From a virus (lineage: Duplodnaviria > Heunggongvirae > Uroviricota > Caudoviricetes), in IMG/VR virus record IMGVR_UViG_3300027744_000008: a stretch of 64,000 bases of DNA; one strand, written 5' to 3'. Both the position numbers and the translations under genes were made by a program. Below the pieces are notes generated by a model, which did no database searches, was not told the DNA's origin, and saw only the letters and a program-made list of their open reading frames with translations. Positions 24,321 through 52,105 of the stretch are shown here, one piece after another. Position 1 is the first letter of the stretch, and every line of letters starts with the position of its first letter.

Positions 24321-25076
24321 ATGAAAAAATTATTATTAATAATACTTGTACTATTCGCCTCCGCAACATTTGCCAATAAGCCTGTCAAGGTCACTGCCAA
24401 CAGTTGGATAGTAGCAGATGCAGATGGCAACATAATCGAAGGTAAAAATACAGAAACTGTTAGGGCTATTGCCAGTATAACAAAGTTGGTCACTGCCATG
24501 GTTGTATTAGATGCAAAGCAATCACTTAATCAAACTATTACTCTACGTAAATTTAAGAAAACTAAGCTAACTAGACAACAGTTGATTGACCTGGCTCTAG
24601 TACACAGTGATAACCAAGCCGCAGACGCTCTGTGTAAGAATTATCCAAAAGGGTATCAGGCCTGTGTGCTTGCAATGAACAACAAAGTTAAATCACTAGG
24701 TATGATGTCAACATATTTTAATGATTCTACAGGATTAAGTCACGCCAACGTTAGCACTGCTGAGGACTTAATCAAATTGGTTAGAGCAAGCCATCAGTAT
24801 CCAGCAATACTTGCAGCTTCGCATCAAGACGCTGTGCGTATTTCTACACGGACTAAACGTAAAAAAACACGTACTCAAACTTTTGTTAATACTAATCCCT
24901 TGGTAAGACTGGGGCAACCAGTTACTGTGAGTAAAACAGGTTTTAACAATGCCAGCGGAGGTTGCTTGGTCATGCAATTAAGAACATCAATAGGTGAACG
25001 TATTGTTATTGTTCTAGGTAGTAGAAATACAAAAACTAGATTTCCAGAAGCTGAGTTTTTAGTGGCCAGTAGATAA
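24321..25076 (+). CDS. D-alanyl-D-alanine carboxypeptidase/endopeptidase (PBP5/PBP7-like serine peptidase S11)
   Basis: SITK (SxxK), SDN (VHSDNQA), KTG (SKTGF) motifs in correct order and spacing; signal peptide. Confidence 0.7.
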   Translation: MKKLLLIILVLFASATFANKPVKVTANSWIVADADGNIIEGKNTETVRAIASITKLVTAMVVLDAKQSLNQTITLRKFKKTKLTRQQLIDLALVHSDNQAADALCKNYPKGYQACVLAMNNKVKSLGMMSTYFNDSTGLSHANVSTAEDLIKLVRASHQYPAILAASHQDAVRISTRTKRKKTRTQTFVNTNPLVRLGQPVTVSKTGFNNASGGCLVMQLRTSIGERIVIVLGSRNTKTRFPEAEFLVASR

Positions 25077-27596: not shown

Positions 27597-27704
27597 TATG
27601 CCTAGCCCACGTAGGGTCAGTCAGATTTTAAAAGGCAAAAAGCCTCCAAAGCCAAAGACAGTTAAGACTATGGCTAAACGAGTAGTTAGACGAAAGTCTA
27701 AATA
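27597..27704 (+). CDS. tiny Arg/Lys-rich peptide (35 aa)
   Basis: RBS aaaggaaataaatt; MPSPRRVSQILKGKKPPKPKTVKTMAKRVVRRKSK. Confidence 0.3.
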
Positions 27705-28045
27705 AGAAATTGTTGTAATTCCTTCAAAGTGAAGGCATTCTGGACGCGGGTTCGACTCCCGCCAGGTCCACCATTAAGTATACTCTATCCGCAAGGAGAC
27801 AAGTGGGTTCATCCATGTAGTGTACTTAATAATGGGCCTGCCATGGCTTCGACAGGGTGAGATAATAGAGACGGCAACACGGTAGGCGATGACCGTTAAT
27901 CAAGCAAAAACCGTAAATGCAACCGCAAATACATTCAAGTTTTGGCAAGCACCAGTTAGCATCGCTGCTAACGACGAGTTTGCACTAGCAGCCTAAGAAA
28001 CTGCACTTGCGAGGTAGGAAAGACCTTGTCATCCAACACACCAAA
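27705..28045 (+). ncRNA. ssrA: two-piece (circularly permuted) tmRNA: acceptor piece ending ...GGUUCGACUCCCGCCAGGUCCACCA (about 27705-27773), coding piece from GGGCCUGCCAUGGCUUCGACAGGG (27834) with tag reading frame ...AANDEFALAA-stop
   Basis: tRNA-like T-arm plus CCA precedes the 5' acceptor strand (gggcctg pairs caggtcc); gct gct aac gac gag ttt gca cta gca gcc taa = AANDEFALAA; gene closed by a terminator. Confidence 0.75.
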
Positions 28046-28072
28046 AAGGTTGCTTCGGCAACCTTTTTTCTT
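28046..28072 (+). terminator. rho-independent terminator (aaggttgc-ttcg-gcaacctt + U-run)
   Basis: seen directly after tmRNA. Confidence 0.7.
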
Positions 28073-28114
28073 TATAATACACACATCACAACACAACAAA
28101 CACGAAAGAAATAG

Positions 28115-31637: not shown

Positions 31638-32432
31638 ATGAAACGTATTTTTACTCTCTCTATTCTTGCTGCCGCAATTTTGGCCGCAGGTTGCACCCGT
31701 ATTGAAACCGGCGAGGTAGGTGTGCGTGTGGGCTTTGACCGACAGATTCAGCCAGGTGAACTCATGCCCGGATCATTCAATCAAACCATGATTGGTGATG
31801 TGCTTACATTCCCTATCAAGGACGTGAATGTAGTGCTTGAGAACATGACTCCCGTTGCCAAAGACAACAGCACAATGAAAGACTTTGATGCTGTGGTTGT
31901 TTACAACATCAATCCACAACAAGTAAGTGAATTGTATAGTACCAAGAACAAGAGTTTTCACGCTGAGTTCAAAGGTGACACCTATGTGATGTACAACTAC
32001 ATTGTGCAAAATGCTCGTAACGCTATCTACAAAGCCACACGTAAATATGAAGCATTAGACATGGCAGACAATCGTACTGAAATGGAAAACTATATCAAGG
32101 ATGAAATTACACGAAACCTTACTGAAGAAAAACTAGATGGCTCAATCACCATCAATCAAGTTATGGTTCGTAGTGTAATTCCTGCTGATAGTGTTGTTGA
32201 AAGTGCAAACGCACTGGTTCGTAGCAAAAACGAACTCAAGCAAAAGGAAGTTGAAGTTAAAACTGCCGAAGCAGAGTCACGCAGAATGGCAGCATTGGCT
32301 AATAACAGCGGTGCTAGTATTGCATTCATGCAAGCACAGGCTATGTTGAATATCAGTGAAGGTATCAAGAATGGTCGAGTGCAGACTATCGTTGTACCTA
32401 GCAACTTTAACGCATTGATGATGAACAAGTAA
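31638..32432 (+). CDS. SPFH/band-7 (HflK/C-like) lipoprotein
   Basis: lipobox LAAGCT; TGEVGVRVGF...VLENMTP core of SPFH domain. Confidence 0.55.
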   Translation: MKRIFTLSILAAAILAAGCTRIETGEVGVRVGFDRQIQPGELMPGSFNQTMIGDVLTFPIKDVNVVLENMTPVAKDNSTMKDFDAVVVYNINPQQVSELYSTKNKSFHAEFKGDTYVMYNYIVQNARNAIYKATRKYEALDMADNRTEMENYIKDEITRNLTEEKLDGSITINQVMVRSVIPADSVVESANALVRSKNELKQKEVEVKTAEAESRRMAALANNSGASIAFMQAQAMLNISEGIKNGRVQTIVVPSNFNALMMNK

Positions 32433-32657: not shown

Positions 32658-33455
32658 ATGATGACTTTCAACAACAAGTTCCGAATTCTTTATATTTTAC
32701 TTTTGCTCAGTGTTCCTGCAAGTATAATAGTGGCCTTTGAAACTAGTTGGTGGTATTTAATTTGTAGTCTTGTTTGGTTTCGATTTACAAACACCATTTT
32801 CACTCAGATCGGATTACATAGATACTTTGCACATAGAAATTTTAAGACAGGCCCTTGGCGCCATCGATTGCTTGCTGTTGGAACTGTATTAAACGGCAGC
32901 GGCAGTATTATTACTTGGGGTTCAAACCATATACATCATCATAGGTATTCAGATAAACCAACGGATGTGCATAGTCCAAATGATGGCTGGTGGCATGTTG
33001 CATTTTCGTGGGCTATATCTAGTAAAGAATATTTCACTGAAGAAAAGAAAATTATTGTACCCAGATATCTGTTGAAAGATAAATTGATAGTCTGGTTACA
33101 CAATAATTATTTTATGATATGGTTTGTTGGTATTGTTGCGTTGACTCTAATTGATTGGAAGTTTGCGCTGTTTGGATTAATGGCACCTGCAGGATGGAAT
33201 ATTTTATCAGGTAATGTTTTGGCTAATCTGTTGACACACATAAAATTGTTCGGCTCTTATAGAACCTTTAACACCAGTGACAATAGTTATAACAACAAGT
33301 TTATACAAATACTTGTATTTGGTGAAGGTTTGCACAACAATCACCATCATGATCCCAGCAAGCACAACCAAGCTGTGAAGCCGGGAGAATATGATCCAGC
33401 CAGCTGGATCATTAAACACTGCTTTGAAACTAAATCTAGTGCAGAACAACAATAA
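32658..33455 (+). CDS. delta-9 desaturase-like membrane protein (paralog 2)
   Basis: HRYFAHRNFK, HIHHHRYSDKPTDVHSPNDG, EGLHNNHHHDP His boxes. Confidence 0.7.
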   Translation: MMTFNNKFRILYILLLLSVPASIIVAFETSWWYLICSLVWFRFTNTIFTQIGLHRYFAHRNFKTGPWRHRLLAVGTVLNGSGSIITWGSNHIHHHRYSDKPTDVHSPNDGWWHVAFSWAISSKEYFTEEKKIIVPRYLLKDKLIVWLHNNYFMIWFVGIVALTLIDWKFALFGLMAPAGWNILSGNVLANLLTHIKLFGSYRTFNTSDNSYNNKFIQILVFGEGLHNNHHHDPSKHNQAVKPGEYDPASWIIKHCFETKSSAEQQ

Positions 33456-33725: not shown

Positions 33726-35246
33726 ATGCAAACAATAATATTCTCAGATGTCTTATCTCCTGGCTTTGGTAGAAACGCCGGCGCATATAGAATAGCAACA
33801 CAGCTTAGGAACAATGGTTATACTTGCCAAGTTATAGATCATTGTACTCGATACACCCAAGACGAGTATGTAAAAATAATAGATAAGTTTGTTACCAAAG
33901 ACACACTTTGGGTAGGTATATCTAATACATTTTTCTTTCCTCTTATACAAGAAGGTCCTGCTGACGGTCGATTTAATGATGTGTTTGATAAGGTCTTTGG
34001 AAAGATTTCTGATTTTCGTAGCGGTTATCCGTTTGAATCAGATACTATGCAAAAATTGTTCTGGTACATACGAAGCAAGAATGAAAATGTAAAAATAATA
34101 ATAGGTGGCGCTAGATCAAAAGAAGCACTACGATATGATGCAGGGGAAAAGGGTGTCTTTGCCGACTACTATGTACACGGGTATGCAGATGAAGCTATAG
34201 TTGAGTTAACTAATTGGCTAAGATCAAATAAAAGTCCTAGACCTAAATTGGACATTATCCATAAATCAATTATAGATTCAAATATGGATTATCCCTATCA
34301 GCACTTTAATAATTGTAATATAAAATACATCAAAGAAGATTTGATTTCTCCTGATGAATATTTGCCTATTGAAATAGCACGAGGTTGTATTTTTAAGTGT
34401 AAATTTTGTAGTTTTTCTTTACTAGGTAAAAAACGTGGTGATTATACCAAGACTAAAGAGACTCTAATTAATGAATTCATGTATAACTATGAAACATTTG
34501 GTACAACCAACTACATGTTCATGGATGAAACTACCAATGACAGTATGGAAAAGGCTGAATATCTTTTAGATGTTACATCTAGTTTGCCTTTTAAGATTCG
34601 ATGGGGCGGCTATGCAAGATTGGATTTACATTATGCTAATCCTGACATGGCAGCAATCATGAAGGAAAGTGGCCAGAGGCATACACAGTTTGGAATAGAG
34701 ACATTCAATCATCAAAGTGGTAAAGCAATTGGCAAGGGATTAGATCCGGAAAAAATTAAAAAAACATTAGAGAAGTTAAAACATGAATGGAAGAACGATG
34801 TTAGAATCACCACAGGACTAATTGTTGGCCTGCCCTATGAAACTAGGCGGTCTCTAAAAGATTTAGAAAACTATCTGTTGAGCGATGATTGTAATTTAGA
34901 TGCATGGGTGCTACATCCGTTGCTACTGGTTGAAGAAAGTGTATTTGGAGAAGATCCGGCAAAGTACGGGTATACATTTGAGCAGGGATCTTCTCAAATT
35001 TTAAACTGGAAAAACAGCGAAATGAATTTTGAAGATGCTGTTCAAATTGTTACTGAAATTAGAAATAATACCAAGCATAAGTGCAAATTAAATACTTGGA
35101 GCCATATGCGACTACAGAACATTGGCTACACTGAATCAGAAGTTGACAGCATGAACACTGAAACATATTTGTCAACTATGACAACGATTGCAGAAAGAAT
35201 GACTTTAAAGAAAGATACTTATTTTCGTCATTTGATGTCGTTGTGA
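33726..35246 (+). CDS. radical SAM enzyme with N-terminal B12-binding-like domain (class B-like)
   Basis: ARGCIFKCKFCSF (CxxxCxxC) cluster motif at the expected position after a Rossmann-like N-terminal domain. Confidence 0.6.
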   Translation: MQTIIFSDVLSPGFGRNAGAYRIATQLRNNGYTCQVIDHCTRYTQDEYVKIIDKFVTKDTLWVGISNTFFFPLIQEGPADGRFNDVFDKVFGKISDFRSGYPFESDTMQKLFWYIRSKNENVKIIIGGARSKEALRYDAGEKGVFADYYVHGYADEAIVELTNWLRSNKSPRPKLDIIHKSIIDSNMDYPYQHFNNCNIKYIKEDLISPDEYLPIEIARGCIFKCKFCSFSLLGKKRGDYTKTKETLINEFMYNYETFGTTNYMFMDETTNDSMEKAEYLLDVTSSLPFKIRWGGYARLDLHYANPDMAAIMKESGQRHTQFGIETFNHQSGKAIGKGLDPEKIKKTLEKLKHEWKNDVRITTGLIVGLPYETRRSLKDLENYLLSDDCNLDAWVLHPLLLVEESVFGEDPAKYGYTFEQGSSQILNWKNSEMNFEDAVQIVTEIRNNTKHKCKLNTWSHMRLQNIGYTESEVDSMNTETYLSTMTTIAERMTLKKDTYFRHLMSL

Positions 35247-35277: not shown

Positions 35278-35436
35278 TGAAACAACGAAAGTTAATTCAA
35301 AAATTGTATAAGGCTTGCTTCGACCGCGATGCCGAGAAACAGTTTGAACTTCGAAAGAAGGAATTCGCCAAGATCTTGAAACACAAGGCCGAAGGTAAAC
35401 CATTTACACATAAATGGACTTTAGTTCAAATATAAC
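35278..35436 (+). CDS. small basic protein (52 aa), not in ORF track
   Basis: strong RBS caaggaggggcaacct. Confidence 0.35.
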
Positions 35437-35481
35437 ACAGGTGTAATCACAGTGTAATCAATTGAGCGGTAAATATTCTAT

Positions 35482-36351
35482 ATGAAGACATACCGCTCAA
35501 TCTTTATTAGCGATGTACATCTTGGCACTAAAGACTGCCAGGCAGATAAACTCAACAACTTCTTAAAACATAATACCTGCGAAACGCTATATCTTGTAGG
35601 AGATATTATTGATGCTTGGAAAATCAAACAAAACAAGTGGCGCTGGAAACAGTCGCACACTAATGTTATTCGTCGTGTGCTGGGTCATAGCAAGCGCGGT
35701 ACTAGGGTTGTATATGTGGCTGGTAATCACGACGAGTTTCTAAGACCATTCATGCAATATGACATTGGTTTTGGTATGATCGAAGTCACAAATCAATTAG
35801 AACATATAGGTGCCGACGGCCGGCATTATCTTGTAGTGCATGGCGACCTGTTTGACGGTATTACTAGACTGGCGCCTTGGTTGGCAATGTTAGGAGATAA
35901 AGCATATGATTTCATTCTTGGACTCAATACTCGGATTAATTGGATTCGTCATCGTTTTGGTTTTGGGTACTTTAGCCTTAGCCTGTTTCTTAAGCACCGG
36001 GTCAAAAAAGCAGTAGACTTTATATTTCATTTTGAACGCAATCTTGCACAGTACTGTAAGAAGCGTGGATTTGATGGTGTTATCTGTGGGCATATACACC
36101 ACGCAGAGATTAAAGAGATAGACGGCGTTGTATATATGAATGACGGCGACTGGGTTGAAAGTTGTACAGCACTGGTAGAACATCATAACGGTGAGTGGGA
36201 AATTATAACCTGGACCAAGGAGAAGGACAATGTGGTTGATGATATTGATAGCAATACACACAGCGAATTCGCAAGATCAACCCGGAAGAATAGAACTACA
36301 GTTTCTAGATCAACGGACCTGCGAACAAACACTAATGACTATGAAATATGA
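35482..36351 (+). CDS. LpxH-family metallophosphoesterase (UDP-2,3-diacylglucosamine hydrolase-like)
   Basis: IFISDVHLG, YLVGDIIDAW, AGNHDEF, VVHGDLFD, CGHIHH - same motif order as LpxH (FIADLHL, ILGDLFEAW, HGNRD, HGDTL, HGHTH). Confidence 0.65.
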   Translation: MKTYRSIFISDVHLGTKDCQADKLNNFLKHNTCETLYLVGDIIDAWKIKQNKWRWKQSHTNVIRRVLGHSKRGTRVVYVAGNHDEFLRPFMQYDIGFGMIEVTNQLEHIGADGRHYLVVHGDLFDGITRLAPWLAMLGDKAYDFILGLNTRINWIRHRFGFGYFSLSLFLKHRVKKAVDFIFHFERNLAQYCKKRGFDGVICGHIHHAEIKEIDGVVYMNDGDWVESCTALVEHHNGEWEIITWTKEKDNVVDDIDSNTHSEFARSTRKNRTTVSRSTDLRTNTNDYEI

Positions 36352-36384
36352 TTTAAAATTTAAAAGTTTTAAGGTAGTAGGCGA

Positions 36385-37389
36385 ATGCAAAAAACAATCT
36401 TAATCGTCACAGACAATTTACCGGAGCAGATCAATGGTGTTGTTACAACCTACAAAAATATTGAGGCGCTTGCGATTCGCGACAACTATCGTGTTGTATA
36501 TATTGATCCCGGGAGGTTCCGCCATGTTGATTGCCCTGGCTACAACGAAGTCAAGATTACCCTTACCAGGAAACGCACAGTGGGCAAGATACTTGAGGAG
36601 ATCAATCCGGATCATATCCATATCGCCACCGAAGGTCCTTTGGGTCTGTGTGCTAGACAATATCTTGACCAACACGGTTATCGCTACAACACTGCTTATC
36701 ATACTAAGTTTCCAGAAGGAATTAGAAAGCTGTTTGGCATACCTGAGAGTGTTACTTGGCCTCTAGTGCGTTGGTTTCATAAGCATTCGGGCAAAGTACT
36801 AACAACAACAGACAGCATGGTCAAGGAGTTAAAAGATCATGGTTTTGATGGAGATGTTATCTCATGGACTCGCGGTGTTGACCGTGACATATTTCATCCT
36901 GCACACAGAGTAGAAACTGTCAGCAGGTATCTCTTGTGCGTCAGCAGAGTTAGCAAAGAGAAGAATCTTGAAAAGTTCTTTGAACTAGACTATCCCGGCT
37001 ATTTAAAAGTCATGGTCGGCGATGGTCCCATGCTTGAAACATATCGAAAACAGTACCCAGATGTACATTTTACTGGATACAAAACTGGAGTAGATCTAGC
37101 ACGTTACTATGCTAATGCAGAAGCATTTGTGTTTCCAAGTCGCTGGGAAACATTTGGGCTCGTAATGATTGAAGCCATGGCCTGCGGAACCCCGGTCGCT
37201 GCTTTTCCTGTACAAGGACCCTTGGATGTTGTCGACGAAGGTGTTACTGGTTGCCTAAATGATGACTTAAAACAAGCAGTCAAAGATTCACTAATGCTGG
37301 ACCGTCAACGTGTTTGGGAAGGCAGTGCTCGTTGGTCGTGGGAACGTGCATGGGAAATATTCTGTAATAATTTGGTAGAAAAAAATTAA
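36385..37389 (+). CDS. glycosyltransferase family 1 (GT4-type)
   Basis: EAFVFPSRWETFGLVMIEAMACGTPV E-x7-E motif. Confidence 0.75.
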   Translation: MQKTILIVTDNLPEQINGVVTTYKNIEALAIRDNYRVVYIDPGRFRHVDCPGYNEVKITLTRKRTVGKILEEINPDHIHIATEGPLGLCARQYLDQHGYRYNTAYHTKFPEGIRKLFGIPESVTWPLVRWFHKHSGKVLTTTDSMVKELKDHGFDGDVISWTRGVDRDIFHPAHRVETVSRYLLCVSRVSKEKNLEKFFELDYPGYLKVMVGDGPMLETYRKQYPDVHFTGYKTGVDLARYYANAEAFVFPSRWETFGLVMIEAMACGTPVAAFPVQGPLDVVDEGVTGCLNDDLKQAVKDSLMLDRQRVWEGSARWSWERAWEIFCNNLVEKN

Positions 37390-37483
37390 ATTTGCAAGAA
37401 AAATAAAGAAATAAAAGATTGACAAATAGTCAAGATAAATATATAATCACAGAGTTAACACAGTAAATTAAAAAGGAGATTTT

Positions 37484-38038
37484 ATGAAATTTACAAAACA
37501 ATTATCACTAGTATTGGCCTCATTATTGGTCACTGGTTCAGCATTGGCCAACGGCTATGCTACCTATGAGTACAGTGAAGAAGAAAACCGCGCAACCAGC
37601 GCCAACAACATTGCCAATGCAGTGGTAGTTGGTTTCAAGGCCGCAGAAGGTTGGGACTACAGTCTCAAAACTAACACCAGCCAAACTGCCCTGGGTTCAG
37701 GCTCAATCAGTTCAGGTCTAGAAGTTCGTGCTAGAAAATCACTGGGCGCATTCTACCTAGGTGGACGACTAGGTGAACGTATTACCAGCGCCACACACTT
37801 CAGCACCTATGCTATCGACGCAGGTGTCAAGTTTCCATTGGTAGCAGGTTTCACTGGTGATGTTGGCGGTCGTTATCGCAATGCTTTTGCCAGCGGTAAA
37901 ACCTACGAAACTCAGCGTGTGCATGCCACAGTGGGTTACGCATTGACCAAACAGGATTCAGTTGCTGTTCGTTTTTCACGCAGTTACGGTGACGAAGAAA
38001 AAGATGCATGGCGTTTGAGCTACACACGTAGTTTCTAA
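37484..38038 (+). CDS. outer-membrane beta-barrel protein (OmpW/OMP_b-brl-like)
   Basis: signal peptide, alternating amphipathic strands, C-terminal ...SYTRSF. Confidence 0.6.
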   Translation: MKFTKQLSLVLASLLVTGSALANGYATYEYSEEENRATSANNIANAVVVGFKAAEGWDYSLKTNTSQTALGSGSISSGLEVRARKSLGAFYLGGRLGERITSATHFSTYAIDAGVKFPLVAGFTGDVGGRYRNAFASGKTYETQRVHATVGYALTKQDSVAVRFSRSYGDEEKDAWRLSYTRSF

Positions 38039-38200
38039 TCAGTGTCTAAAATCGGCCGCAACGATTGAGCGGTGTTGGACCTCGTAACCAACAGTAGGAA
38101 CTTAGGTTCCTATTTTTATGACTGTAAAAAGCGTAACTGTAATGTAACAAACTACAGGTTAAATACTAAAGGACAATAGTCCTAACCCAAGGAGAAAAAT

Positions 38201-38599
38201 ATGAAACTCGAAATGACCGCGTATGATATGGATATCAACGTTACGCTAAGTGACGACGATACATTTAATGTGTCGTTAGATGTTATACAAACTATAAGAA
38301 ATCTAGTAGAAGAGTTAAGAGCATTTAGTAATGTAAATGTTTCGATTAACTCAATCTTAGTTGAGGAATATGCTACAGAATTTAATGATGAAATTATAGA
38401 AGACAACAGTATGCCAACTGTCTATATGGAACAAATTAATGCACAAGCATCGTGGCCATTTCCAAATAGTGATGTTCCAGCAGAACCTGCACAAGAAGAA
38501 GTTGTTAATGTAGGGTTACCATTAATGTCTCCTGTAGAAAATGGATTTGAATCTCAAGTACAGATTGTGTTTGATGACCCGACTATAAAAACAGAATAA
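38201..38599 (+). CDS. acidic hypothetical protein
   Basis: ORF track; RBS caaggagaaaaat. Confidence 0.45.
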   Translation: MKLEMTAYDMDINVTLSDDDTFNVSLDVIQTIRNLVEELRAFSNVNVSINSILVEEYATEFNDEIIEDNSMPTVYMEQINAQASWPFPNSDVPAEPAQEEVVNVGLPLMSPVENGFESQVQIVFDDPTIKTE

Positions 38600-39247: not shown

Positions 39248-39360
39248 ACACGTATTTATAATAGATTTTTTTAAACATCACAATAGAAATAAATGTTGAA
39301 TAAATCTATTGACTTAGGGGTATAATAGGATATATAATATACACACATAAAGGAACAGTT

Positions 39361-42598: not shown

Positions 42599-42685
42599 GG
42601 ATGTGTGTGCCGAATGGTGAAGGCAGCTGACTGTAAATCAGTGACATAAGAAACGTTGGTGGTTCGAGTCCATCCGCATCCACCA
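42599..42685 (+). tRNA. tRNA-Tyr(GTA), type II, CCA encoded
   Basis: hand-folded: acceptor ggatgtg/cgcatcc, loop cuGUAaa, long variable arm. Confidence 0.75.
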
Positions 42686-42690
42686 AATTT

Positions 42691-42765
42691 GGTCCTGTCA
42701 TATAGTGGCTATTATACCGGCCTGTCTAGTCGGATATCGGGGTTCGATTCCCCGCAGGATCGCCA
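42691..42765 (+). tRNA. tRNA-Asp(GTC)
   Basis: acceptor ggtcctg/caggatc, loop cuGUCua, T-arm cgggg-ttcgatt-ccccg, disc G. Confidence 0.6.
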
Positions 42766-42769
42766 ATTA

Positions 42770-42844
42770 GGGGGATTCATATACTGGGTATTATGCCTGC
42801 CTTGCACGTAGGTCAAAAGAGTTCGATTCTCTTATCCTCCACCA
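42770..42844 (+). tRNA. tRNA-Ala(TGC) with G3:U70
   Basis: loop cuUGCac; G3-U70 identity pair present. Confidence 0.75.
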
Positions 42845-42917
42845 GTTTTAGGATAGCAACAGCAAACAAATCCAATTTCACTTTTAATGAAAAAAAGATG
42901 CTATCCTGTTTTATTAT

Positions 42918-42994
42918 GCGACCTTAGCTCAGTTGGATAGAGCACTTGCCTACGAAGTAAGGGGTCAGGAGTTCGAGTCTCTTAGGTCGCGCCA
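42918..42994 (+). tRNA. tRNA-Arg(ACG)
   Basis: loop cuACGaa; acceptor gcgacct/aggtcgc. Confidence 0.75.
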
Positions 42995-43001
42995 AATATA
43001 T

Positions 43002-43076
43002 TCCCTAGTAGCTCAGCGGTAGAGCAGCAGGCTGTTAACTTGTTGGTCCGTGGTTCGATCCCACGCTGGGGAGCCA
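43002..43076 (+). tRNA. tRNA-Asn(GTT), U1-A72 as in E. coli
   Basis: loop cuGUUaa. Confidence 0.7.
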
Positions 43077-43084
43077 ATTTATGT

Positions 43085-43159
43085 TGGGGTGTAGTGTAAT
43101 GGCTATCACAGCGGGCTTTGAACTCGCTAATCTTGGTTCGATTCCAAGCACCCCTACCA
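43085..43159 (+). tRNA. tRNA-Gln(TTG) with U1.U72 mismatch
   Basis: loop cuUUGaa; acceptor tggggtg vs cacccct. Confidence 0.6.
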
Positions 43160-43233
43160 GTTTTAGGTTAATTACAGCGATAAAAAATGGCTGTCTGCTA
43201 GGACGTTAAACTAGTATTAACCTGTTTTATTTT

Positions 43234-43308
43234 ACTCCGGTCGTCTAGTGGCTAGGACGCCAGCCTTTCAAGTTGGAGAAGCGGGATCGAAACCCGTTCG
43301 GAGTACCA
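43234..43308 (+). tRNA. tRNA-Glu(TTC) copy 1 (A1-U72)
   Basis: D/anticodon region cgtctagtggctaggacgccagccTTTCAAgttgg matches Glu family. Confidence 0.65.
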
Positions 43309-43315
43309 AGTTTAT

Positions 43316-43393
43316 ATAGCGGTGGCAGAGAGGCCCATTGCATCGGATTGCAAATCCGAAAAACCGTGAGTTCAAATCTCACCCGCTATTCCA
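43316..43393 (+). tRNA. tRNA-Cys(GCA), discriminator U73
   Basis: tcgga-ttGCAaa-tccga; U73 Cys identity. Confidence 0.65.
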
Positions 43394-43398
43394 AATTT

Positions 43399-43472
43399 GC
43401 CCTTTTAGTTAAATGGTATAACAACTGTTTTGTAATCAGTTATTGGCAGTTCGATTCTGTCATGGGGCACCA
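43399..43472 (+). tRNA. tRNA-Thr(TGT) copy 1 (U31.U39)
   Basis: actgt-tuUGUaa-tcagt resembles B. subtilis Thr-UGU arm. Confidence 0.65.
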
Positions 43473-43705
43473 AGTTTTGAGAGTGTCAGCAAGTGAAGTC
43501 ACGCTGTTTAGTATTCTTCGAAGGTACTGAGCAGTAAAAGGCAAATGGGTTCAACTCCCACCCGCGGGCAACTGCGGAGGTCCGTAATGGGGACTACGCT
43601 GGACGGATCCCAAGTGATATCCATCGTGCTCGAGGTCAGGCTAGGCGGCCGGTAAGTCCTGAATAAATCTACGATAAAAGCGGCGTAGGCTCTCAAATTC
43701 AATTT

Positions 43706-43780
43706 CCTCTTGTAGCTCAATGGTAGAGCACTCGCTTGATAAGCGATAGACCTAAGGTTCGATTCCTTTCGAGAGGACCA
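43706..43780 (+). tRNA. tRNA-Ile(GAT)
   Basis: loop uuGAUaa; acceptor cctcttg/cgagagg. Confidence 0.7.
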
Positions 43781-43937
43781 AGTTTCGAGTTAGACGTCAA
43801 CGTTGAGTCCCCATGGCATAGCACAATGCGGATTGTGTGACACACCAGTATGCTAATAGAGGTTGTTTAAACTCCGTTGCGCGAGACAATCTAGCGAGTC
43901 TTCCCAGGAGGATAGTTAGGCACTTGAAAATCTATTA

Positions 43938-44016
43938 CTGGGATTATTGTCAGTCAGGTCAGACGGCTCGCCTTGGAAGTGAGAGGTCGCAGGTTCGAAT
44001 CCTGCATCCCAGACCA
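43938..44016 (+). tRNA. tRNA-Pro-like (anticodon TGG; C1-G72, A73), irregular D-arm
   Basis: ctcgc-cuUGGaa-gtgag; 79 nt; 3 nt between acceptor and D-stem. Confidence 0.45.
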
Positions 44017-44030
44017 AAGACTTCTTTGGT

Positions 44031-44104
44031 GTGACTATGTTGTAATGGTAGCAACACAGATTGTGATTCTGTTAGCATGGGTTCGATCCCCATTAGTCAC
44101 CCCA
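44031..44104 (+). tRNA. tRNA-His(GTG), C73, no encoded G-1
   Basis: acaga-uuGUGau-tctgt; perfect acceptor gtgacta/tagtcac. Confidence 0.75.
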
Positions 44105-44114
44105 AAGAAGTTTT

Positions 44115-44192
44115 GCCCTTGTGGACAAATTGGTAAAGTCGCCTCTCTCAAAAGGAGTAGTTCTGTCTGTTCGAATCAGACCAAGGGTACCA
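44115..44192 (+). tRNA. atypical class-I tRNA with anticodon CAA (Leu codon UUG) but no long variable arm
   Basis: cctct-cuCAAaa-ggagt; variable region only 6 nt; good T-arm and acceptor. Confidence 0.45.
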
Positions 44193-44194
44193 AT

Positions 44195-44268
44195 GCTCTT
44201 ATAGTTAAATGGTAGAACACCTCTTTGGTATGGAGGTAATGGTAGTTCGATTCTACCTAAGAGCACCA
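44195..44268 (+). tRNA. tRNA-Thr(GGT)
   Basis: cctct-uuGGUau-ggagg. Confidence 0.75.
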
Positions 44269-44277
44269 AAAGTATAT

Positions 44278-44353
44278 GCCAAGATAGCTCAGTTGGTAGA
44301 GCACCGGTCTGAAGAATCGGGTGTGGTTGGTTCGATCCCAACTCTTGGTACCA
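44278..44353 (+). tRNA. tRNA-Phe(GAA)
   Basis: ccggt-cuGAAga-atcgg. Confidence 0.8.
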
Positions 44354-44527
44354 ATTTTAGGATGCGAACAGCAAATAAAAAAATTCAACTTGTAATTGAA
44401 AAATAAGCATCCTGTTTTTAAAATGTTCAAAAGGAGAACGACATGAAACGTGCTAAACGTTAGTGTCATCTTTAGATTCCATGTAGGTCTAGGGATGGCA
44501 CGTAAAAGAAAATCTAATACGTACTAT

Positions 44528-44602
44528 CCCTTCGAGGTGTTATGGTAGCATACTCGGCTCTTAACCGATGAGGTGACAGTTCGAATCTGTCTGGAGGGAC
44601 CA
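44528..44602 (+). tRNA. tRNA-Lys(CTT)
   Basis: ctcgg-cuCUUaa-ccgat; A73. Confidence 0.55.
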
Positions 44603-44608
44603 ATTCAT

Positions 44609-44684
44609 GGAAGCATAACTCAATGGCTAGAGTATCGGACTTTTAATCCGAGAGTTGTGGGTTCGAGTCCCACTGCTTCTACCA
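44609..44684 (+). tRNA. tRNA-Lys(TTT)
   Basis: tcgga-cuUUUaa-tccga. Confidence 0.8.
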
Positions 44685-44840
44685 TATAAAAACATACTGG
44701 TCTACCGCCACCGAGAGGTAGTTAAAGACAATGACAAGCAACAGCCAGTGTGTTTCTATATGGTGACTATATAAAAACACGCTCGCGGCTCCCGGGGTTG
44801 GGGGTACGTTGTACGACTACCCTAGAGTGTGTTTCTATAT

Positions 44841-44916
44841 GGTAACGTAGCATAGTGGCTAATGCACCACCTTCATACGGTGTCGATCGTCGGTTCGAGT
44901 CCGACCGTTACTACCA
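44841..44916 (+). tRNA. tRNA-Met/Ile2 (CAT) copy 1
   Basis: ccacc-uuCAUac-ggtgt. Confidence 0.6.
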
Positions 44917-45042
44917 AGTTTAGGATAGTAACAGCAAATTTAAAAACAACTACTCTTGAAAAGTGAAGGAACGGTTCGACTCCGTGGCCGCAAGGTTTGG
45001 TGTAACGGTAGCACTATGTTAAATTCTATCCTGTTTAATAAT

Positions 45043-45116
45043 GTCTCGGTGGTGTAATGGCAGCATGGCGGTCTCCAAAACCGTTCGTGGGGGTTCGAGT
45101 CCCTCCCGGGACGCCA
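45043..45116 (+). tRNA. tRNA-Trp(CCA), G73
   Basis: gcggt-cuCCAaa-accgt. Confidence 0.75.
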
Positions 45117-45122
45117 ATTAAT

Positions 45123-45210
45123 GGAAGTGTGTCTGAGTGGGTTAAGGTACCGCACTTGAAATGCGGCGTGTCGAAGGGCACCGTGGGTTCGAATCCTACC
45201 ACTTCCGCCA
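45123..45210 (+). tRNA. tRNA-Ser(TGA), type II
   Basis: ccgca-cuUGAaa-tgcgg; long variable arm; G73. Confidence 0.8.
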
Positions 45211-45215
45211 AGTTA

Positions 45216-45875
45216 TTACCAAATACTACTATTTGAATAATGATTGTCAACTACAATCTCAGGGATTGAAATCCATTCAGGTTGGCTAATCATCCATCTC
45301 ACAATGCTGGCAATTTCTTCGGGCTTGGTCCAGCAAACGCTAGAATTCCAATTGTAGTTTTTATAATGATCCGGATCAACTCTAAAAGGTGTCAAACTCC
45401 TGGCCAGCGGAGTATCCACTGCGCTGGGGCTGATGCACATGACCTTGACTGGTTTAGATCTACTGTTGCTTAATGCAACACTGGTCTCTTTGAGATGTTT
45501 CTTAGCAACCGCATAGGCAGTTCTGATAGAGTTTTCTCTAATGCCAGTTAGTCGTTCAGCACTTATGCTAGATACATTTATGATTTGCCCCGTGGGCATC
45601 TTATCATAAAATTTTAACAACAGATCAACGGATGCAGTACCAATCATGTGTAGTGTTTTGTATTTGTCAGAGAACAATGCCGCGGCGTTGTTGACAAACA
45701 AGTCAGGTGTATATTTTCCCACAAGATAGTTTCTAAATGCTTCATCTTGCAAATCACCTTGTTCAATGGCAGCATCACTTCTGCCAACTGTGATCACTTG
45801 ATACTCTGTACTTAGATCGTTGGCAATGGCTAAACCTATGCCTTTTGTTCCGCCCGTTACTAGTGCTATTTTCAT
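45216..45875 (-). CDS. short-chain dehydrogenase/reductase (SDR)
   Basis: VTGGTKGIGLAIA Rossmann, NNAA motif. Confidence 0.65.
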   Translation of the reverse strand: MKIALVTGGTKGIGLAIANDLSTEYQVITVGRSDAAIEQGDLQDEAFRNYLVGKYTPDLFVNNAAALFSDKYKTLHMIGTASVDLLLKFYDKMPTGQIINVSSISAERLTGIRENSIRTAYAVAKKHLKETSVALSNSRSKPVKVMCISPSAVDTPLARSLTPFRVDPDHYKNYNWNSSVCWTKPEEIASIVRWMISQPEWISIPEIVVDNHYSNSSIW

Positions 45876-47152
45876 ATGAGTGTGCTGGGTAAATCAAAAT
45901 AATAAAGTTTTTTTGTTTCATCTGGTTGATCGTCGAAGAATGTATATTGACTAGATTCTTTGATTTTTTCAAGCATACCTAGTTTAAAATTTACATTATC
46001 CCACACATAAAAAAGATATAGATCGTTATCAAAAGTAACATCATGTGGAACATGACTACCGGAAAAAACTAGTATACCAGATCTAGCAGTAATCTTAAAT
46101 TCATTGGGTCGTTGATGATCAGTATAAGAGCTTCTTAGTAGAGCAGGATTGCTGTAATAATTTGCTAAGTTGGGATCATCATCCGGTATTGGATTCCAGA
46201 ATCGATAGTCAATCCCACTGTCATTAAAAGTTAAACGAATAATTATAGTTAGTGTAAGTCTATTCTGCTCTGTAACACGATGTGTATGAACCAACAAAGA
46301 TTCATCTAGGCTTTTGTGACCCATCAGTACAGAAGCATGATCGCAATCGTCTATATAAGTTTCTGCAAGATCTTCTGCATCTTTATTCAACTTCATAAAT
46401 TTTTTATAGATATAGGGGTGTCGATCGATAGCGAACTGCATAGCATGATCAAACGTATGCATCAGTAACGAAATGGGAATTTTTCCTTTAGAGACAGTCA
46501 GGTCATGAGGTCTACGCACAATGTTACTGGTTCTTTCTTTGAGAAATCGACATCCAGTTAAACTAGGATCACTGGGTTTACACCATACACCTTCTCCATC
46601 ATAGCTAATCATGTGCCCAATGGGTATTATGTTTTTAACTACCCAGTCTAGATGATAAGGAATAAGTGTCCAGGAGATTAGTTGATTTTTTGGAGGATAA
46701 TGAGTATATGGAAACTCGCTATGATACCCATCATCGGATGTGTAACGACTAAATTTAGTTCCCACGGTGGCGTGTGCATTACTAAAACTAAGTATCAATT
46801 CATCATACTTGTCTCTATTTTTAGATGCCCATTTATCATATTCTTCTTTAGACCAAAATATAACACGCAATTCAGATCGAAGACCACCATCGGAATAATG
46901 CGGCTCAATATTAACCACTGCATCGGAACTGAGCAATAATTTATACAGATTAAAAATAGCTGTTTCATTTTGAGGATGCTCGTTAACTGATGCTATTTCT
47001 AGTACATTATAAACTGTGTAATAATTTTGTTGCATTTCTGTATCCATACTATTTAATTTTTCGTACAAAAGGTTTTGATAGCCCAAATAGCTGCCTATCT
47101 TTATTCCATACTTGTCCGGGCGGCAGACCAATCCTACTTCTTTTAATATCAA
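45872..47152 (-). CDS. Asp/Asn beta-hydroxylase (AspH/LpxO-like) family protein, long form
   Basis: HTHRVTEQNRLTLTIIIRL parallels HRHTGPENRTGEYIRIHIPL of neighbouring paralog. Confidence 0.45.
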   Translation of the reverse strand: MILKEVGLVCRPDKYGIKIGSYLGYQNLLYEKLNSMDTEMQQNYYTVYNVLEIASVNEHPQNETAIFNLYKLLLSSDAVVNIEPHYSDGGLRSELRVIFWSKEEYDKWASKNRDKYDELILSFSNAHATVGTKFSRYTSDDGYHSEFPYTHYPPKNQLISWTLIPYHLDWVVKNIIPIGHMISYDGEGVWCKPSDPSLTGCRFLKERTSNIVRRPHDLTVSKGKIPISLLMHTFDHAMQFAIDRHPYIYKKFMKLNKDAEDLAETYIDDCDHASVLMGHKSLDESLLVHTHRVTEQNRLTLTIIIRLTFNDSGIDYRFWNPIPDDDPNLANYYSNPALLRSSYTDHQRPNEFKITARSGILVFSGSHVPHDVTFDNDLYLFYVWDNVNFKLGMLEKIKESSQYTFFDDQPDETKKLYYFDLPSTLI

Positions 47153-47882
47153 TTAAAAATATCAATCGGTGACCGTTAGACAGATTGTGAGCACTATGTA
47201 CCAATTGATTATCAAAGGCAAATATATCACTCCAATTGATTTCTTCTCCGTCTACTTCAAAGAATAAATCACCGGGGGGAACAATTAATGGAATGTGAAT
47301 TCTAATATATTCTCCAGTCCTGTTTTCAGGACCAGTATGTCTGTGCAATACAGTATTTGGAGCCAAGTAACTATAACTGGCTATGGGACAATCGTTCCAA
47401 AATTCTTTAACTAGTCGATATGCCGTGGGGAAATTCTTTTCAGCATATTTGGGATCTATATCCCAATGTAGATCTGACGAAGGATCGTGATATTTAAATT
47501 CAACATTTTTCCATCCGTTGGGGTTGGCAAACGATTCGTTGTTATCATCTAGTGTAGTCCGCAGGATTTCAGTTACAACATCGGGAAACCGTGTTCCATT
47601 TGGATCCGGAGTTGGTACAAGATATCCGCCACGCTCAGAACTTTTTTGCATGACATTACGAGCTTTAACATTTATCGCTTCTTCAAGCGACTGACCTCTT
47701 AAGAATTCGTCTATTAGAGCCTGTCTAAAGCTCATTAGATATTCGGCAACTTCTAGAAACTCATGCCTTCTATAAATTGGTTGAGGATGTGTATCTTTTT
47801 CTGGATCGTAATTGGAGTCAATTTCTCCAAAGATATGACTATGCATTTGGTGCAAGAATGAGTGGAAGGCATGTTCTTTCAT
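47049..47882 (-). CDS. aspartyl/asparaginyl beta-hydroxylase family (LpxO-like) 2OG oxygenase
   Basis: VLHRHTGPENRTGEYIRIHIPLIVP...FEVDGEEINW...LVHSAHNLSNGHRLIFLIDI matches Asp_Arg_Hydrox core. Confidence 0.6.
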   Translation of the reverse strand: MKEHAFHSFLHQMHSHIFGEIDSNYDPEKDTHPQPIYRRHEFLEVAEYLMSFRQALIDEFLRGQSLEEAINVKARNVMQKSSERGGYLVPTPDPNGTRFPDVVTEILRTTLDDNNESFANPNGWKNVEFKYHDPSSDLHWDIDPKYAEKNFPTAYRLVKEFWNDCPIASYSYLAPNTVLHRHTGPENRTGEYIRIHIPLIVPPGDLFFEVDGEEINWSDIFAFDNQLVHSAHNLSNGHRLIFLIDIKRSRIGLPPGQVWNKDRQLFGLSKPFVRKIK

Positions 47883-49251: not shown

Positions 49252-49345
49252 CCCTCTGTAGTTTAATGGTAAAACACCTGTTTTATACACAGCATCGTCG
49301 CCAGATTAGCGAGCGTTCTAGGTTCGAATCCTAGCAGAGGGACCA
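49252..49345 (+). tRNA. atypical tRNA: C1-G72/A73, anticodon loop uuUAUac (TAT) and about 24-nt variable region
   Basis: acceptor ccctctg/cagaggg, D gttt-aatggta-aaac, T ctagg-ttcgaat-cctag; identity uncertain. Confidence 0.45.
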
Positions 49346-49347
49346 TT

Positions 49348-50184
49348 TTGCTGATAAATACCAGTATGGACAAAAAAATAATTAACAAAATTAGAGAAAG
49401 TATTTTATCCGATAATGGCTACAACAAAGAATTTTCAACATCTGGGTCATTTCAAGGTCTACAACTTCCCCAGGAATATATAGACCGTATGACAGCACTA
49501 GGTGAGAAATATCAAGATATCAAGTGGTTGCCTTTAGACATACCAAAAATAGAAATCCCCGATATTGAAGAATTTAAAGCACTATGGGAAGAAGAATCTA
49601 TTGATACCCTTCGAACAAAAGTAGATGCGGCAGAACCCTGGCCCAAAGAGGATCACCCCAGGGGCATGGCTAGTAGTTGGCATGTGCCTTCGTTCAAAGG
49701 ACTGCATTTATACCAACATGAAATGTCCCCATTAGAGGATCATTCATGGACTGGCAAAGTCTACAAGGGCAACAACAAACAGCTAAAAAGAATTTTAGAA
49801 CAAGCATTTGAATATTTTCCAATACATACTTTTACTTCTATATTCATATGGCAAAGTGTTGAGGAAATTTATCCTCATCAGGATCAAGGAGCATTTTGGA
49901 AATGTCCCACTGAATTTCGGTGTATGTTACACGATGAAAATCCCGAGCCTACTCTGTATGTTGTAGACATTGAACGCGGAGACACAACCTACATAGATCT
50001 TCCAAAAGATACAAATAGTTTTTGTTGGAGTAACGGTACACAGCTACACGGCAGCGACTACAAGGGAAAGAAAAAATTTCTACTTGCTGTAGCCGGTGTT
50101 CAACATTCAGTCAAGTGCGAGGAATTGTTCGAACGCAGTATTGAAAAATATAAAGATCAACTCAATTATAAATTAGACTTGTAA
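49348..50184 (+). CDS. 2OG-Fe(II) oxygenase superfamily protein
   Basis: YPHQDQG (HxD) ... TQLHGS; starts right after tRNA. Confidence 0.45.
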   Translation: MLINTSMDKKIINKIRESILSDNGYNKEFSTSGSFQGLQLPQEYIDRMTALGEKYQDIKWLPLDIPKIEIPDIEEFKALWEEESIDTLRTKVDAAEPWPKEDHPRGMASSWHVPSFKGLHLYQHEMSPLEDHSWTGKVYKGNNKQLKRILEQAFEYFPIHTFTSIFIWQSVEEIYPHQDQGAFWKCPTEFRCMLHDENPEPTLYVVDIERGDTTYIDLPKDTNSFCWSNGTQLHGSDYKGKKKFLLAVAGVQHSVKCEELFERSIEKYKDQLNYKLDL

Positions 50185-50229
50185 TTCAGTTTTAAATCTA
50201 ATATTTCTACTCCGACAATAAGTAATTTT

Positions 50230-51105
50230 ATGAAAATAAAACCACTGAATAATTGCGGAGTAGAAATATTAGATTTGGATATTTCTACATTGTCCACGAC
50301 AGATTACGCAGAAATAAAAGATATCTTTTTAAACAACTTGATTGTAGTATTAAAAAATCAACCATTAAAAGTTGTTCCGTATGCTGGTCTAATCGAAGGC
50401 ATAGGAAAAATTGCCAATTGGGATCAAAGTGTATGGCGAATGGACGGATCTGTACTCTACGATGATTATAAGGGCTGTTACGTTGACCCATTTAACTATG
50501 TTGGTGCAGATGAAGACTTTCCTGTACAACGAGTAACCGGCAAAAAGATCAAAGGAGATCCAACAGGCATCTTTGGAGAAGGCAAACTTGATTGGCACAG
50601 TAACATGAACGGTCCTTTCAATAGGGCACGGGGTGTTGCACTACAAGGTGTATCGGAAGCCTGTGTTGGTACTAGTACTAGTTGGATGGATACTACATTG
50701 GCCTATGCTGCCATGAGTGACGAGTTAAAAACTCGTTGTCAAAACGTTGTTGGTAGATATGAATATGCTCCTGAAATATGGGCTGAAGGATTGCCCAAGT
50801 TTCAATATGATCTTATGTTAAAGAACAAAGAAGAATTCTATAACATGCCCTTGATAAATTTAAGTGACAAGGGCAAGCCCGGATTATATTTCCACTACAA
50901 CAATAAATGTACATTCCCTAGCGATCCAACATTATTAGAAGCTCTAAAAGAACACTGCTTTAAACCAGAATTTATATACACTCATGTTTGGGAGATAGGG
51001 GACATTGTGCTAAGTGATCAAGTATTAACCCTACACAAGCGAGATCAAGATGATCCTGCTATTCTAGCAGAACGTGTGCTACATAGATACACATTCCATT
51101 ATTAG
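50230..51105 (+). CDS. TauD/TfdA-like 2OG-dependent dioxygenase
   Basis: GKLDWHSNMNG (WH.D-like), C-terminal Arg; size 291 aa. Confidence 0.4.
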   Translation: MKIKPLNNCGVEILDLDISTLSTTDYAEIKDIFLNNLIVVLKNQPLKVVPYAGLIEGIGKIANWDQSVWRMDGSVLYDDYKGCYVDPFNYVGADEDFPVQRVTGKKIKGDPTGIFGEGKLDWHSNMNGPFNRARGVALQGVSEACVGTSTSWMDTTLAYAAMSDELKTRCQNVVGRYEYAPEIWAEGLPKFQYDLMLKNKEEFYNMPLINLSDKGKPGLYFHYNNKCTFPSDPTLLEALKEHCFKPEFIYTHVWEIGDIVLSDQVLTLHKRDQDDPAILAERVLHRYTFHY

Positions 51106-51421
51106 GACTTTAGTTTAATGGCAGAACATTACCGTGACATGGTAAAGATAATAGTTCAATTCTATTAAGTCCTACCAGAGAACAAGATAAGTACATTCAC
51201 AAAGAGAACCATATGAAACTACCATCAACCTTTAAATTATCAAAAGCAACCAAGCGTCGACTAGCAACTATACTTGACCCTCATCTACGAGGTGTCATCC
51301 GCAGAAGTTTAGCGCAGGCAGAATATGTTGCAAACCAAAAAGTCAAAACTTCTAAAGGCAGAGACGAGTAAGATTCATGCATCGATGATAGAATTGGTAA
51401 TACCAATTCTTAGGAAAAGAG

Positions 51422-52059: not shown

Positions 52060-52105
52060 AATATACAAAAATTTTGGTAAATAGTTATACTAGGAGGAGA
52101 CAACC

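Follow-up and report, generated by a model that had tools for sequence, protein, structure and literature searches.

A 64,000-nucleotide stretch of viral DNA (IMG/VR record IMGVR_UViG_3300027744_000008, Caudoviricetes), referred to here as the window, encodes a metallophosphoesterase of 289 amino acids (aa), a glycosyltransferase of 334 aa and a predicted outer-membrane beta-barrel protein of 184 aa. The three open reading frames (ORFs) were all found on the plus strand (Table 1), where a preliminary description of the window had placed them and had interpreted them as a single cluster for remodelling of the host cell envelope. Identical copies of all three genes were present on independent metagenome contigs, the longest of 320 kb, which ruled out an assembly artefact; the genome of the source phage measures at least 320 kb. 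That the window originates from a phage was concluded from its load of tRNA genes (32, together with a transfer-messenger RNA, tmRNA, within 64 kb) and from the filing of its relatives in IMG/VR. A ribonucleotide reductase, a phage-type exonuclease and a Mtd_N protein were further phage signs.

Table 1. Positions of the features discussed in the text. Positions refer to the window unless a locus handle (L plus number) is given.
Feature	Position	Strand	Basis or remark
PlcP-type (LpxH-like) Mn-metallophosphoesterase (predicted), 289 aa	35482-36351	+	Pfam, NCBIfam, profile, motifs, homologues, structure model
Agt/GTcp-like GT4 glycosyltransferase (predicted), 334 aa	36385-37389	+	Pfam, residue alignment, homologues
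Predicted 10-stranded outer-membrane beta-barrel, 184 aa	37484-38038	+	Structure model, Foldseek
Pho-box-like element	35431-35475	+	TGTAAT-N5-TGTAAT 35442-35458; degenerate third unit TATAAC 35431-35436; 11 nt; TAAATA 35470-35475
Sigma-70 promoter of barrel gene	37419-37447	+	TTGACA-17-TATAAT, perfect consensus (12/12)
Intrinsic-terminator-like hairpin	38095-38119	+	TAGGAAC-TTAG-GTTCCTA, then TTTTTAT; palindrome assigned to the opposite strand in the scan
Second repeat-plus-TAAATA copy	38132-38165	+	CGTAAC-N5-TGTAAC-N11-TAAATA, upstream of 38201-38599
Acidic 132-aa ORF	38201-38599		No family match
TATAAATA or TAAATA boxes before start codons	8893-8900, 20985-20992, 39253-39260 (-); 35470-35475		No Shine-Dalgarno sequence
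Ala/Val/Glu-rich ORF behind element	L103 6990-7640		Also in L119, L144, L159, L171
GT2 replacement partner (example)	L100 5904-6623		Glycos_transf_2, Glyco_transf_21
Fatty acid desaturase	32658-33455		Just upstream of the pair
B12-binding radical SAM enzyme	33726-35246		Just upstream of the pair; best NCBIfam match PhpK P-methyltransferases, 92.7 bits (cut-off 600)
SPFH protein	31638-32432		Band_7
PBP5-type DD-carboxypeptidase	24321-25076		Peptidase_S11
SleB-like hydrolase	10153-10683		Hydrolase_2
AspH/LpxO-like hydroxylase	47049-47882		Asp_Arg_Hydrox
ORF overlapping the hydroxylase ORF by about 100 nt	45872-47152	-	No Pfam or PHROG match
Short-chain dehydrogenase	45216-45875
tRNA genes, 32 in total	42599-45210 and 49252-55669		20 in one dense array
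Permuted tmRNA	27661-28087		Rfam beta_tmRNA, 121 bits (gathering score 84); tag ...ANDEFALAA
Class I ribonucleotide reductase	3747-7168
Full-length Hsp70/DnaK	16241-18130		860 bits
TauD-family dioxygenase	50230-51105
DUF2828/DUF7788 protein	56255-57664

A Pfam search with the 289-aa protein returned Metallophos (43.2 bits). The metal-binding motifs D11-x-H13, GD41, GN82H, H120 and GH204-x-H206 were present in this order and were invariant in an alignment of homologues. In the preliminary description these five motifs had been read as those of LpxH; their presence and order were confirmed, but the set is generic to the calcineurin-like superfamily and not specific to LpxH, and the third motif of the phage protein reads GNHD (residues 81-84) rather than the GNRD of Escherichia coli LpxH. 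The arginine in the third metallophosphoesterase motif reportedly marks LpxH, and we take its replacement of the usual histidine to be a hallmark of that enzyme. Scores with the NCBIfam equivalog models for LpxH were 43.8 bits for NF003743 (cut-off 134 bits) and 36.1 bits for TIGR01854 (cut-off 190 bits), with matches confined to residues 5-123. E. coli LpxH (K-12 record) showed 25% identity across the first 122 residues, and the top sequence matches in the PDB were LpxH chains with weak scores (E = 1e-4, 24 bits). The solved fold nearest to the structure model was LpxH with bound lipid X (5k8k; template modelling score, TM, about 0.45; E = 3e-8), followed by generic phosphodiesterases. The phage protein shares with LpxH its superfamily, its metal motifs and the presence of helices inserted behind the HGD motif, and differs from it in the third motif, in gene context and in taxonomic spread. 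An identity as LpxH was rejected on the basis of the missed cut-offs, the alignment limited to the N-terminal part and the GNHD motif; LpxH is the closest solved relative of the phosphoesterase, not its family.

When bacterial genomes were scanned, one for each species, 80 homologues were obtained with 45-57% identity over nearly the full length (residues ~1-250), the remaining ~40 residues (~250-289) of the phage protein forming a phage-specific C-terminal tail that is predicted to be disordered. Most of these homologues originated from Alphaproteobacteria (Caulobacter, Labrys, Labrenzia/Roseibium, Mesorhizobium, Bradyrhizobium and a Pelagibacter metagenome-assembled genome, MAG) and some from Betaproteobacteria. 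With a profile built from 79 bacterial homologues, the window protein scored 390.7 bits, its homologues in Pelagibacter phage Mosig and Synechococcus phage S-SRM01 scored 352.9 and 199.9 bits, and the score of E. coli LpxH was 38.9 bits. These data place the phosphoesterase with an LpxH-like paralogue that is encoded upstream of agt in Alpha- and Betaproteobacteria, and thereby suggest that it is a PlcP-type phospholipase C whose substrate would be a glycerophospholipid rather than a lipid A precursor. PlcP, an LpxH-like phospholipase C that depends on Mn, converts membrane phospholipid to diacylglycerol during phosphate starvation. Agt, a glycosyltransferase of family GT4, then converts diacylglycerol to monoglucosyl- or glucuronosyl-diacylglycerol.

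Members of this family in Alphaproteobacteria are labelled LpxH by NCBI and JGI, and phage and alphaproteobacterial members alike carry the GenBank and IMG name UDP-2,3-diacylglucosamine diphosphatase/LpxH. Alphaproteobacteria such as Caulobacter reportedly make lipid X via LpxI, and Caulobacter lipid X is presumably a product of LpxI and not of LpxH. The LpxH name therefore looks like a propagated error, and for the phage and alphaproteobacterial members of the family it is very likely wrong.

The 334-aa ORF, which starts 33 nt beyond the phosphoesterase stop codon, matched Glycos_transf_1 (84.2 bits) and Glyco_transf_4 (53.9 bits) in Pfam and was assigned to GT4, as had been proposed. GTcp, the Agt-type enzyme of Pelagibacter HTCC7211, has 334 aa, a catalytic dyad His104-Asp256, diacylglycerol contacts at Thr162, Arg163 and Trp320, and the motifs GRVAxEKN and FPSxTDTFG. 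A GT4 encoded beside the phosphoesterase homologue of the Pelagibacter MAG (L065) carried H104, T162, R163, D256, W320, GRVAIEKN and FPSKTDTFG at exactly the published numbers, which validated the residue alignment. Aligned in this way, the window enzyme has H106, T162, R163 and W319 at the positions of the catalytic histidine and of the diacylglycerol contacts. Its UDP-sugar motif reads SRVSKEKN, in which RV and EKN are retained and the glycine and alanine of GRVAxEKN are altered. The enzyme is predicted to be a diacylglycerol glycosyltransferase. The identities of both window proteins to the bacterial set were within the ranges published for characterised PlcPs (46-51%) and Agts (35-43%).

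Adjacent plcP and agt genes are a published layout for conversion of phospholipid, via diacylglycerol, to glucosyl- or glucuronosyl-diacylglycerol under phosphate stress, a pathway proven in Phaeobacter, Pelagibacter HTCC7211, Pseudomonas aeruginosa, Agrobacterium and Methylosinus. Of the 80 bacterial phosphoesterase loci, 64 encoded a full-length homologue of the window glycosyltransferase (36-46% identity) downstream and in the same orientation; in 54 of 79 it started within 600 nt of the phosphoesterase homologue, with a median overlap of 6 nt. Relatives of the phosphoesterase were encoded in at least 562 stretches of IMG/VR viral contigs (contigs of up to 359 kb), and linkage in viruses was counted in the 80 best of these loci (73-90% identity), 77 of which had room downstream. 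A GT4 followed the phosphoesterase in 35 of the 77 (34 called, and one overlapping the phosphoesterase stop codon), and 40 encoded a non-homologous transferase of ~238 aa instead, mostly starting 37 nt past the stop codon. This replacement partner was of the GT2/GT21 type by Pfam (Glycos_transf_2 and Glyco_transf_21; best NCBIfam match 61 bits against a cut-off of 182). Either transferase was thus present in 75 of the 77 loci and neither in two. The same alternative transferases have been published for bacterial plcP neighbourhoods. The exchange of one transferase for an unrelated one in an identical position speaks for selection on the combination of a phospholipase C with a lipid glycosyltransferase.

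Separately from these loci, a contig from human faeces (MT836169, 'Bacteriophage sp.'; L010 3781-5705) showed a third type of partner, with a 41% identical phosphoesterase whose gene overlaps a Glyco_trans_1_3 gene downstream of it; this gut contig is unverified.

The start codon of the phosphoesterase gene is preceded by TGTAATCACAGTGTAATC, 11 nt, TAAATA and 6 nt, with no Shine-Dalgarno sequence. The direct repeat in this Pho-box-like element is the sole exact TGTAAY-N5-TGTAAY in the window. Relatives kept the general design (TGTAAY or TGTCAY, N5, repeat, 10-12 nt, TAAATA) even where the upstream gene differed, and several (L127, L132, L134 and L006) had the canonical Pho-box half-site TGTCAY. 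A strict pattern, which allowed at most one mismatch in the two hexamers, a spacer of 10-12 nt and an exact TAAATA, was scanned against 737 kb from the 80 viral loci. It matched 52 times on the gene strand, once on the other strand and not at all in 20 Markov resamples, statistics that are inflated because the pattern was derived from the same, interrelated loci. Among the matches, 32 ended 4-11 nt before the phosphoesterase ATG and 11 preceded pstS (335-aa protein; NF008171, 400.6 bits, cut-off 339). Five others preceded an Ala/Val/Glu-rich protein (~214 aa, no Pfam match), a candidate further member of a putative phage phosphate-stress regulon. Two preceded homologues of an acidic 132-aa ORF, including the copy downstream of the barrel gene in the window; this ORF may be co-regulated with the phosphoesterase gene. 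Of the 80 viral loci, 18 had a pstS gene at a distance of at most 5 kb from the phosphoesterase gene, and in Mosig the two genes are divergent neighbours. In the bacterial homologues, a Pho-box-like site was present at most 200 nt upstream in 40 of 79 cases, as compared to 1 of 79 in an intragenic control.

A scan of the window for the canonical Pho box CTGTCATNNNNCTGTCAT with up to three mismatches gave four matches against 7.4 expected. An early motif candidate, in which the regions upstream of the phosphoesterase and barrel genes have in common the 9-mer TAATCACAG and, on the minus strand, the dyad CTGTGWT-N4-5-CTGTGWT, was absent from all non-identical relatives and was dropped; the plus-strand TGTAAY repeats were preferred over it because they are conserved in relatives.

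Family assignment, gene linkage, conserved residues and a promoter motif shared with pstS together make it probable that the phosphoesterase and GT4 genes constitute a phage-borne version of the PlcP-Agt pathway for lipid renovation in bacteria. From these observations we infer the substrates, the products, binding of PhoB and the benefit to the phage. As a Mn-dependent phospholipase C, the phosphoesterase would cleave host glycerophospholipids to diacylglycerol and a phosphorylated head group, whose phosphorus would be available for phage nucleotide synthesis, in support of a genome of at least 320 kb. The GT4 would glycosylate the diacylglycerol from a UDP-sugar, and the resulting phosphorus-free glycolipid would preserve membrane integrity up to lysis. 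Transcription of the pair probably starts at the Pho-box-like promoter, which would be switched on via host PhoB at phosphate starvation, and in relatives that carry pstS the two functions would be co-induced. This full proposal, in which a widespread lineage of freshwater jumbo phages encodes a PhoB-switched phospholipase C and glycolipid synthase that turn host membrane phospholipid into glycolipid and supply phosphorus to a large genome, appears to us evenly poised between right and wrong. A modification of the host envelope by the phage, as had been described, is consistent with the plausible action of both enzymes on an envelope lipid, although the target would not be lipid A.

Characterised PlcP-Agt operons, as in Sinorhizobium (SMc00171), Phaeobacter (MED193_17359), Pelagibacter HTCC7211 (PB7211_983/960), P. 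aeruginosa (PA3219/PA3218) and Methylosinus OB3b, resemble the phage locus in several respects. In both, an LpxH-like Mn-metallophosphoesterase is directly followed by a GT4 of ~334 aa that keeps the GTcp residues His, Thr-Arg and Trp, the genes are preceded by an element of the Pho-box type, and identities are in the range among characterised members. The phage locus differs by its location in a phage genome, its GT4 motifs (EX7E with Glu, and SRVSKEKN), its TGTAAY half-sites and, 6 nt before the start codon, a TAAATA box, the use of a GT2 in place of the GT4 in about half of the related phages, and the disordered phosphoesterase tail. The pstS and phoA genes of T4-like cyanophages and pelagiphages are reportedly induced through the host PhoBR system. 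The pair would share with these genes, besides a Pho-box-like element, the raising of phosphorus supply during infection, and pstS is a frequent neighbour in the loci studied here. In contrast to pstS and phoA, the phosphorus source would be host membrane lipid, and the second enzyme would repair the membrane.

Several observations weigh against this proposal. At the position of the catalytic Asp of bacterial Agts (DX7E), the window GT4 has Glu255 (FPSRWETFG, EX7E). Trp-Glu was found in 34 of 40 viral GT4s, as opposed to x-Asp in 59 of 60 bacterial plcP-linked GT4s, which makes the Asp-to-Glu change specific to the phage lineage. In GTcp the substitution D256E cost more than 90% of activity, and donor, acceptor or rate of the phage enzymes may therefore differ. 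By their sequences, the phage GT4s appear to form a divergent subclade with the canonical GT4 motif EX7E, Agt-like rather than standard Agt. The link to PlcP and Agt runs via homologues from the same genera (the Pelagibacter MAG, Labrenzia/Roseibium and Mesorhizobium for the phosphoesterase) and via published identity ranges, motifs and residue numbering. The structure model of the phosphoesterase is moderate (predicted local distance difference test, pLDDT, 64), and its helical insertion (pLDDT below 50) is too uncertain for a comparison of the substrate pocket with that of LpxH. Mosig and S-SRM01 encode the phosphoesterase without an adjoining glycosyltransferase, and the window itself lacks pstS.

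Further points against the proposal concern the promoter, in addition to the inflated scan statistics. The TGTAAY repeats differ from CTGTCAT by one mismatch per half-site, and the TAAATA box is nearer to the T4-type late promoter TATAAATA than to a sigma-70 -10 box; the element could represent a phage-specific promoter class and not a PhoB site. TATAAATA was not enriched in the window (five found, 6.8 expected), and three of the five copies were located 4-7 nt before ORF starts. Mosig showed the same arrangement before its homologue (L001, about 8001-8011). Boxes at such a distance from start codons, with no Shine-Dalgarno sequence, suggest T4-late-type promoters and leaderless or near-leaderless mRNAs in the window phage.

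The same chemistry might also benefit the phage by a route other than phosphorus supply, such as a change in membrane charge or composition that acts against superinfection, assists assembly of a very large virion or weakens the membrane before lysis. Lipid renovation in P. aeruginosa has been published to alter the membrane proteome, possibly including phage receptors. Consistent with such a role, the pair has membrane-related neighbours (Band_7, a fatty acid desaturase and the barrel), and its TAAATA box resembles a late-type promoter. Against it stand the Pho boxes at the bacterial homologues and the sharing of the element with pstS, the archetypal phosphate-starvation gene, which recurs near the phage genes. 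A benefit of this kind was consequently judged unlikely. The shared element points to phosphorus scavenging, and not to the superinfection exclusion or lysis timing that had been suggested for the locus.

The barrel gene had been grouped with the pair, and its product had been described as an outer-membrane protein ending in an aromatic residue. The latter assignment was borne out: the 184-aa protein has an N-terminal signal helix (...SALA/NG), ten predicted antiparallel strands (pLDDT 82.5) and a C-terminal phenylalanine (...YTRSF), and all 50 Foldseek matches listed from the PDB were outer-membrane barrels, with TM scores of up to 0.69 (a designed 10-strand barrel). Searches of Pfam, NCBIfam, PHROG and PDB sequences gave no match, and no named outer-membrane protein family (OmpA, OmpX/Ail/Lom, OmpW or PagP) was assigned. 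Its 516 homologues had no Pfam match or informative name, the 120 listed were 66-97% identical, and they were seen only in this phage lineage. Lambda Lom is a phage-encoded outer-membrane protein of the 8-stranded Ail/Lom family. Like Lom, the barrel is a small secreted beta-barrel encoded by a phage accessory gene with its own promoter; it differs by its ten predicted strands, by the lack of similarity in Pfam, NCBIfam and PHROG and by the restriction of its homologues to this lineage. A function at the cell surface, for example in exclusion, is speculative.

Cooperation of the barrel with the pair, for instance in export of head groups or in anchoring of a remodelled outer membrane, would fit its adjacent position on the same strand and the possibility of read-through, since no terminator separates it from the glycosyltransferase gene. 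Such a partnership was nevertheless considered quite improbable. The barrel gene has its own perfect-consensus promoter and a terminator-like hairpin, only three of the 80 viral relatives had a barrel homologue at most 5 kb from the phosphoesterase gene, and none was present in the 80 bacterial plcP loci. In a 513-kb contig, which carries a 79% identical phosphoesterase relative beside a GP38-domain gene, the barrel gene is located 2.4 kb upstream and has BPL_N and rubrerythrin genes as neighbours. Because of its own promoter and terminator and its rare proximity to the pair, the barrel gene is regarded as a separate transcription unit and not as a conserved partner, and the proposed three-gene cluster was abandoned.

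Action of the pair on a target other than membrane glycerolipid was regarded as highly unlikely; a nucleotide-sugar or a polyprenyl-pyrophosphate intermediate would be conceivable here, with a polysaccharide, phage DNA or protein glycosylated in the next step. The Asp-to-Glu change and SRVSKEKN, which distinguish the phage GT4 from characterised Agts, and the alternative partner, a generic GT2 with no informative family match, would agree with such a target. However, the catalytic His and the diacylglycerol contacts (Thr-Arg and Trp) are conserved, and the gene order is that of bacteria with a genetically proven pathway. It is extremely improbable that the phosphoesterase acts as an LpxH in the production of lipid X while the GT4 modifies LPS (lipopolysaccharide) and the barrel joins them in lipid A/LPS remodelling that serves superinfection exclusion or the timing of lysis. 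Among families with solved structures, LpxH does come nearest by sequence and fold; it also lends its database name to the whole family and shares the generic metal motifs. However, both equivalog cut-offs were missed widely by an N-terminal match with GNHD, the close homologues occur predominantly in Alphaproteobacteria, for instance Caulobacter (presumed LpxI users), and are coupled to agt-type GT4s, and no lipid A gene was found near the pair in the window ORF list and Pfam scan. Neither a generic Mre11/YfcE-type assignment of the phosphoesterase nor a non-membrane fold of the barrel protein was obtained.

In the literature searched, no report of a phage-borne plcP or of phage-encoded lipid renovation was found. 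If the proposed PlcP-Agt function is correct, this would be the first viral lipid renovation pathway, so far hidden under the name 'LpxH / LPS biosynthesis'. The phage phosphorus-relief genes pstS and phoA are textbook cases of manipulation of host metabolism and all act on external phosphate; the phage PlcP-glycosyltransferase pair would open up a source inside the cell, the phospholipid of the host membrane. Infection would then alter the lipid composition of abundant aquatic bacteria, with a bearing on environmental glycolipid and phospholipid measurements. A practical correction concerns viral surveys, in which lpxH-annotated genes are counted as 'LPS biosynthesis'. In a published table of the Lake Baikal viral metatranscriptome, for example, 'lpxH' is entered in the category LPS biosynthesis next to a stearoyl-CoA desaturase, and we suspect that these are genes of the kind described here.

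The nearest cultured phages with a homologue of the phosphoesterase were Mosig (47% identity) and S-SRM01 (38%), in both of which it is annotated as UDP-2,3-diacylglucosamine hydrolase. At the DNA level, a search against phages gave a single match of 150 nt, to Mosig. The host of the source phage is most likely Gram-negative, and the type of the tmRNA hints at a betaproteobacterial host. The tRNA array and the tmRNA form a translation island typical of jumbo phages.

The region directly upstream of the pair encodes a fatty acid desaturase and a radical SAM enzyme of the B12-binding type. Desaturase genes recurred near the pair among relatives, and a loose membrane-lipid neighbourhood around it is plausible. 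In one related locus (L006), a rubrerythrin gene was followed by a rubredoxin gene.

Elsewhere in the window, the preliminary description had listed further envelope-related genes. Profile searches confirmed the DD-carboxypeptidase, the SleB-like hydrolase and the SPFH protein by their Pfam families. One of the two proposed AspH/LpxO-like hydroxylases was confirmed, and the other ORF matched no Pfam or PHROG family. Metallophos, Glycos_transf_1, Asp_Arg_Hydrox and Peptidase_S11 were thus all recovered, while the LpxH cut-offs were missed and the barrel had no match in Pfam. The SPFH, peptidoglycan and hydroxylase genes had been linked to the pair; they lie 3-25 kb away from it, and nothing was found that connects them to it. 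The hydroxylase ORF is overlapped by the unmatched minus-strand ORF, and a short-chain dehydrogenase is encoded nearby. The window also encodes a class I ribonucleotide reductase, a full-length Hsp70/DnaK, a TauD-family dioxygenase and a DUF2828/DUF7788 protein.

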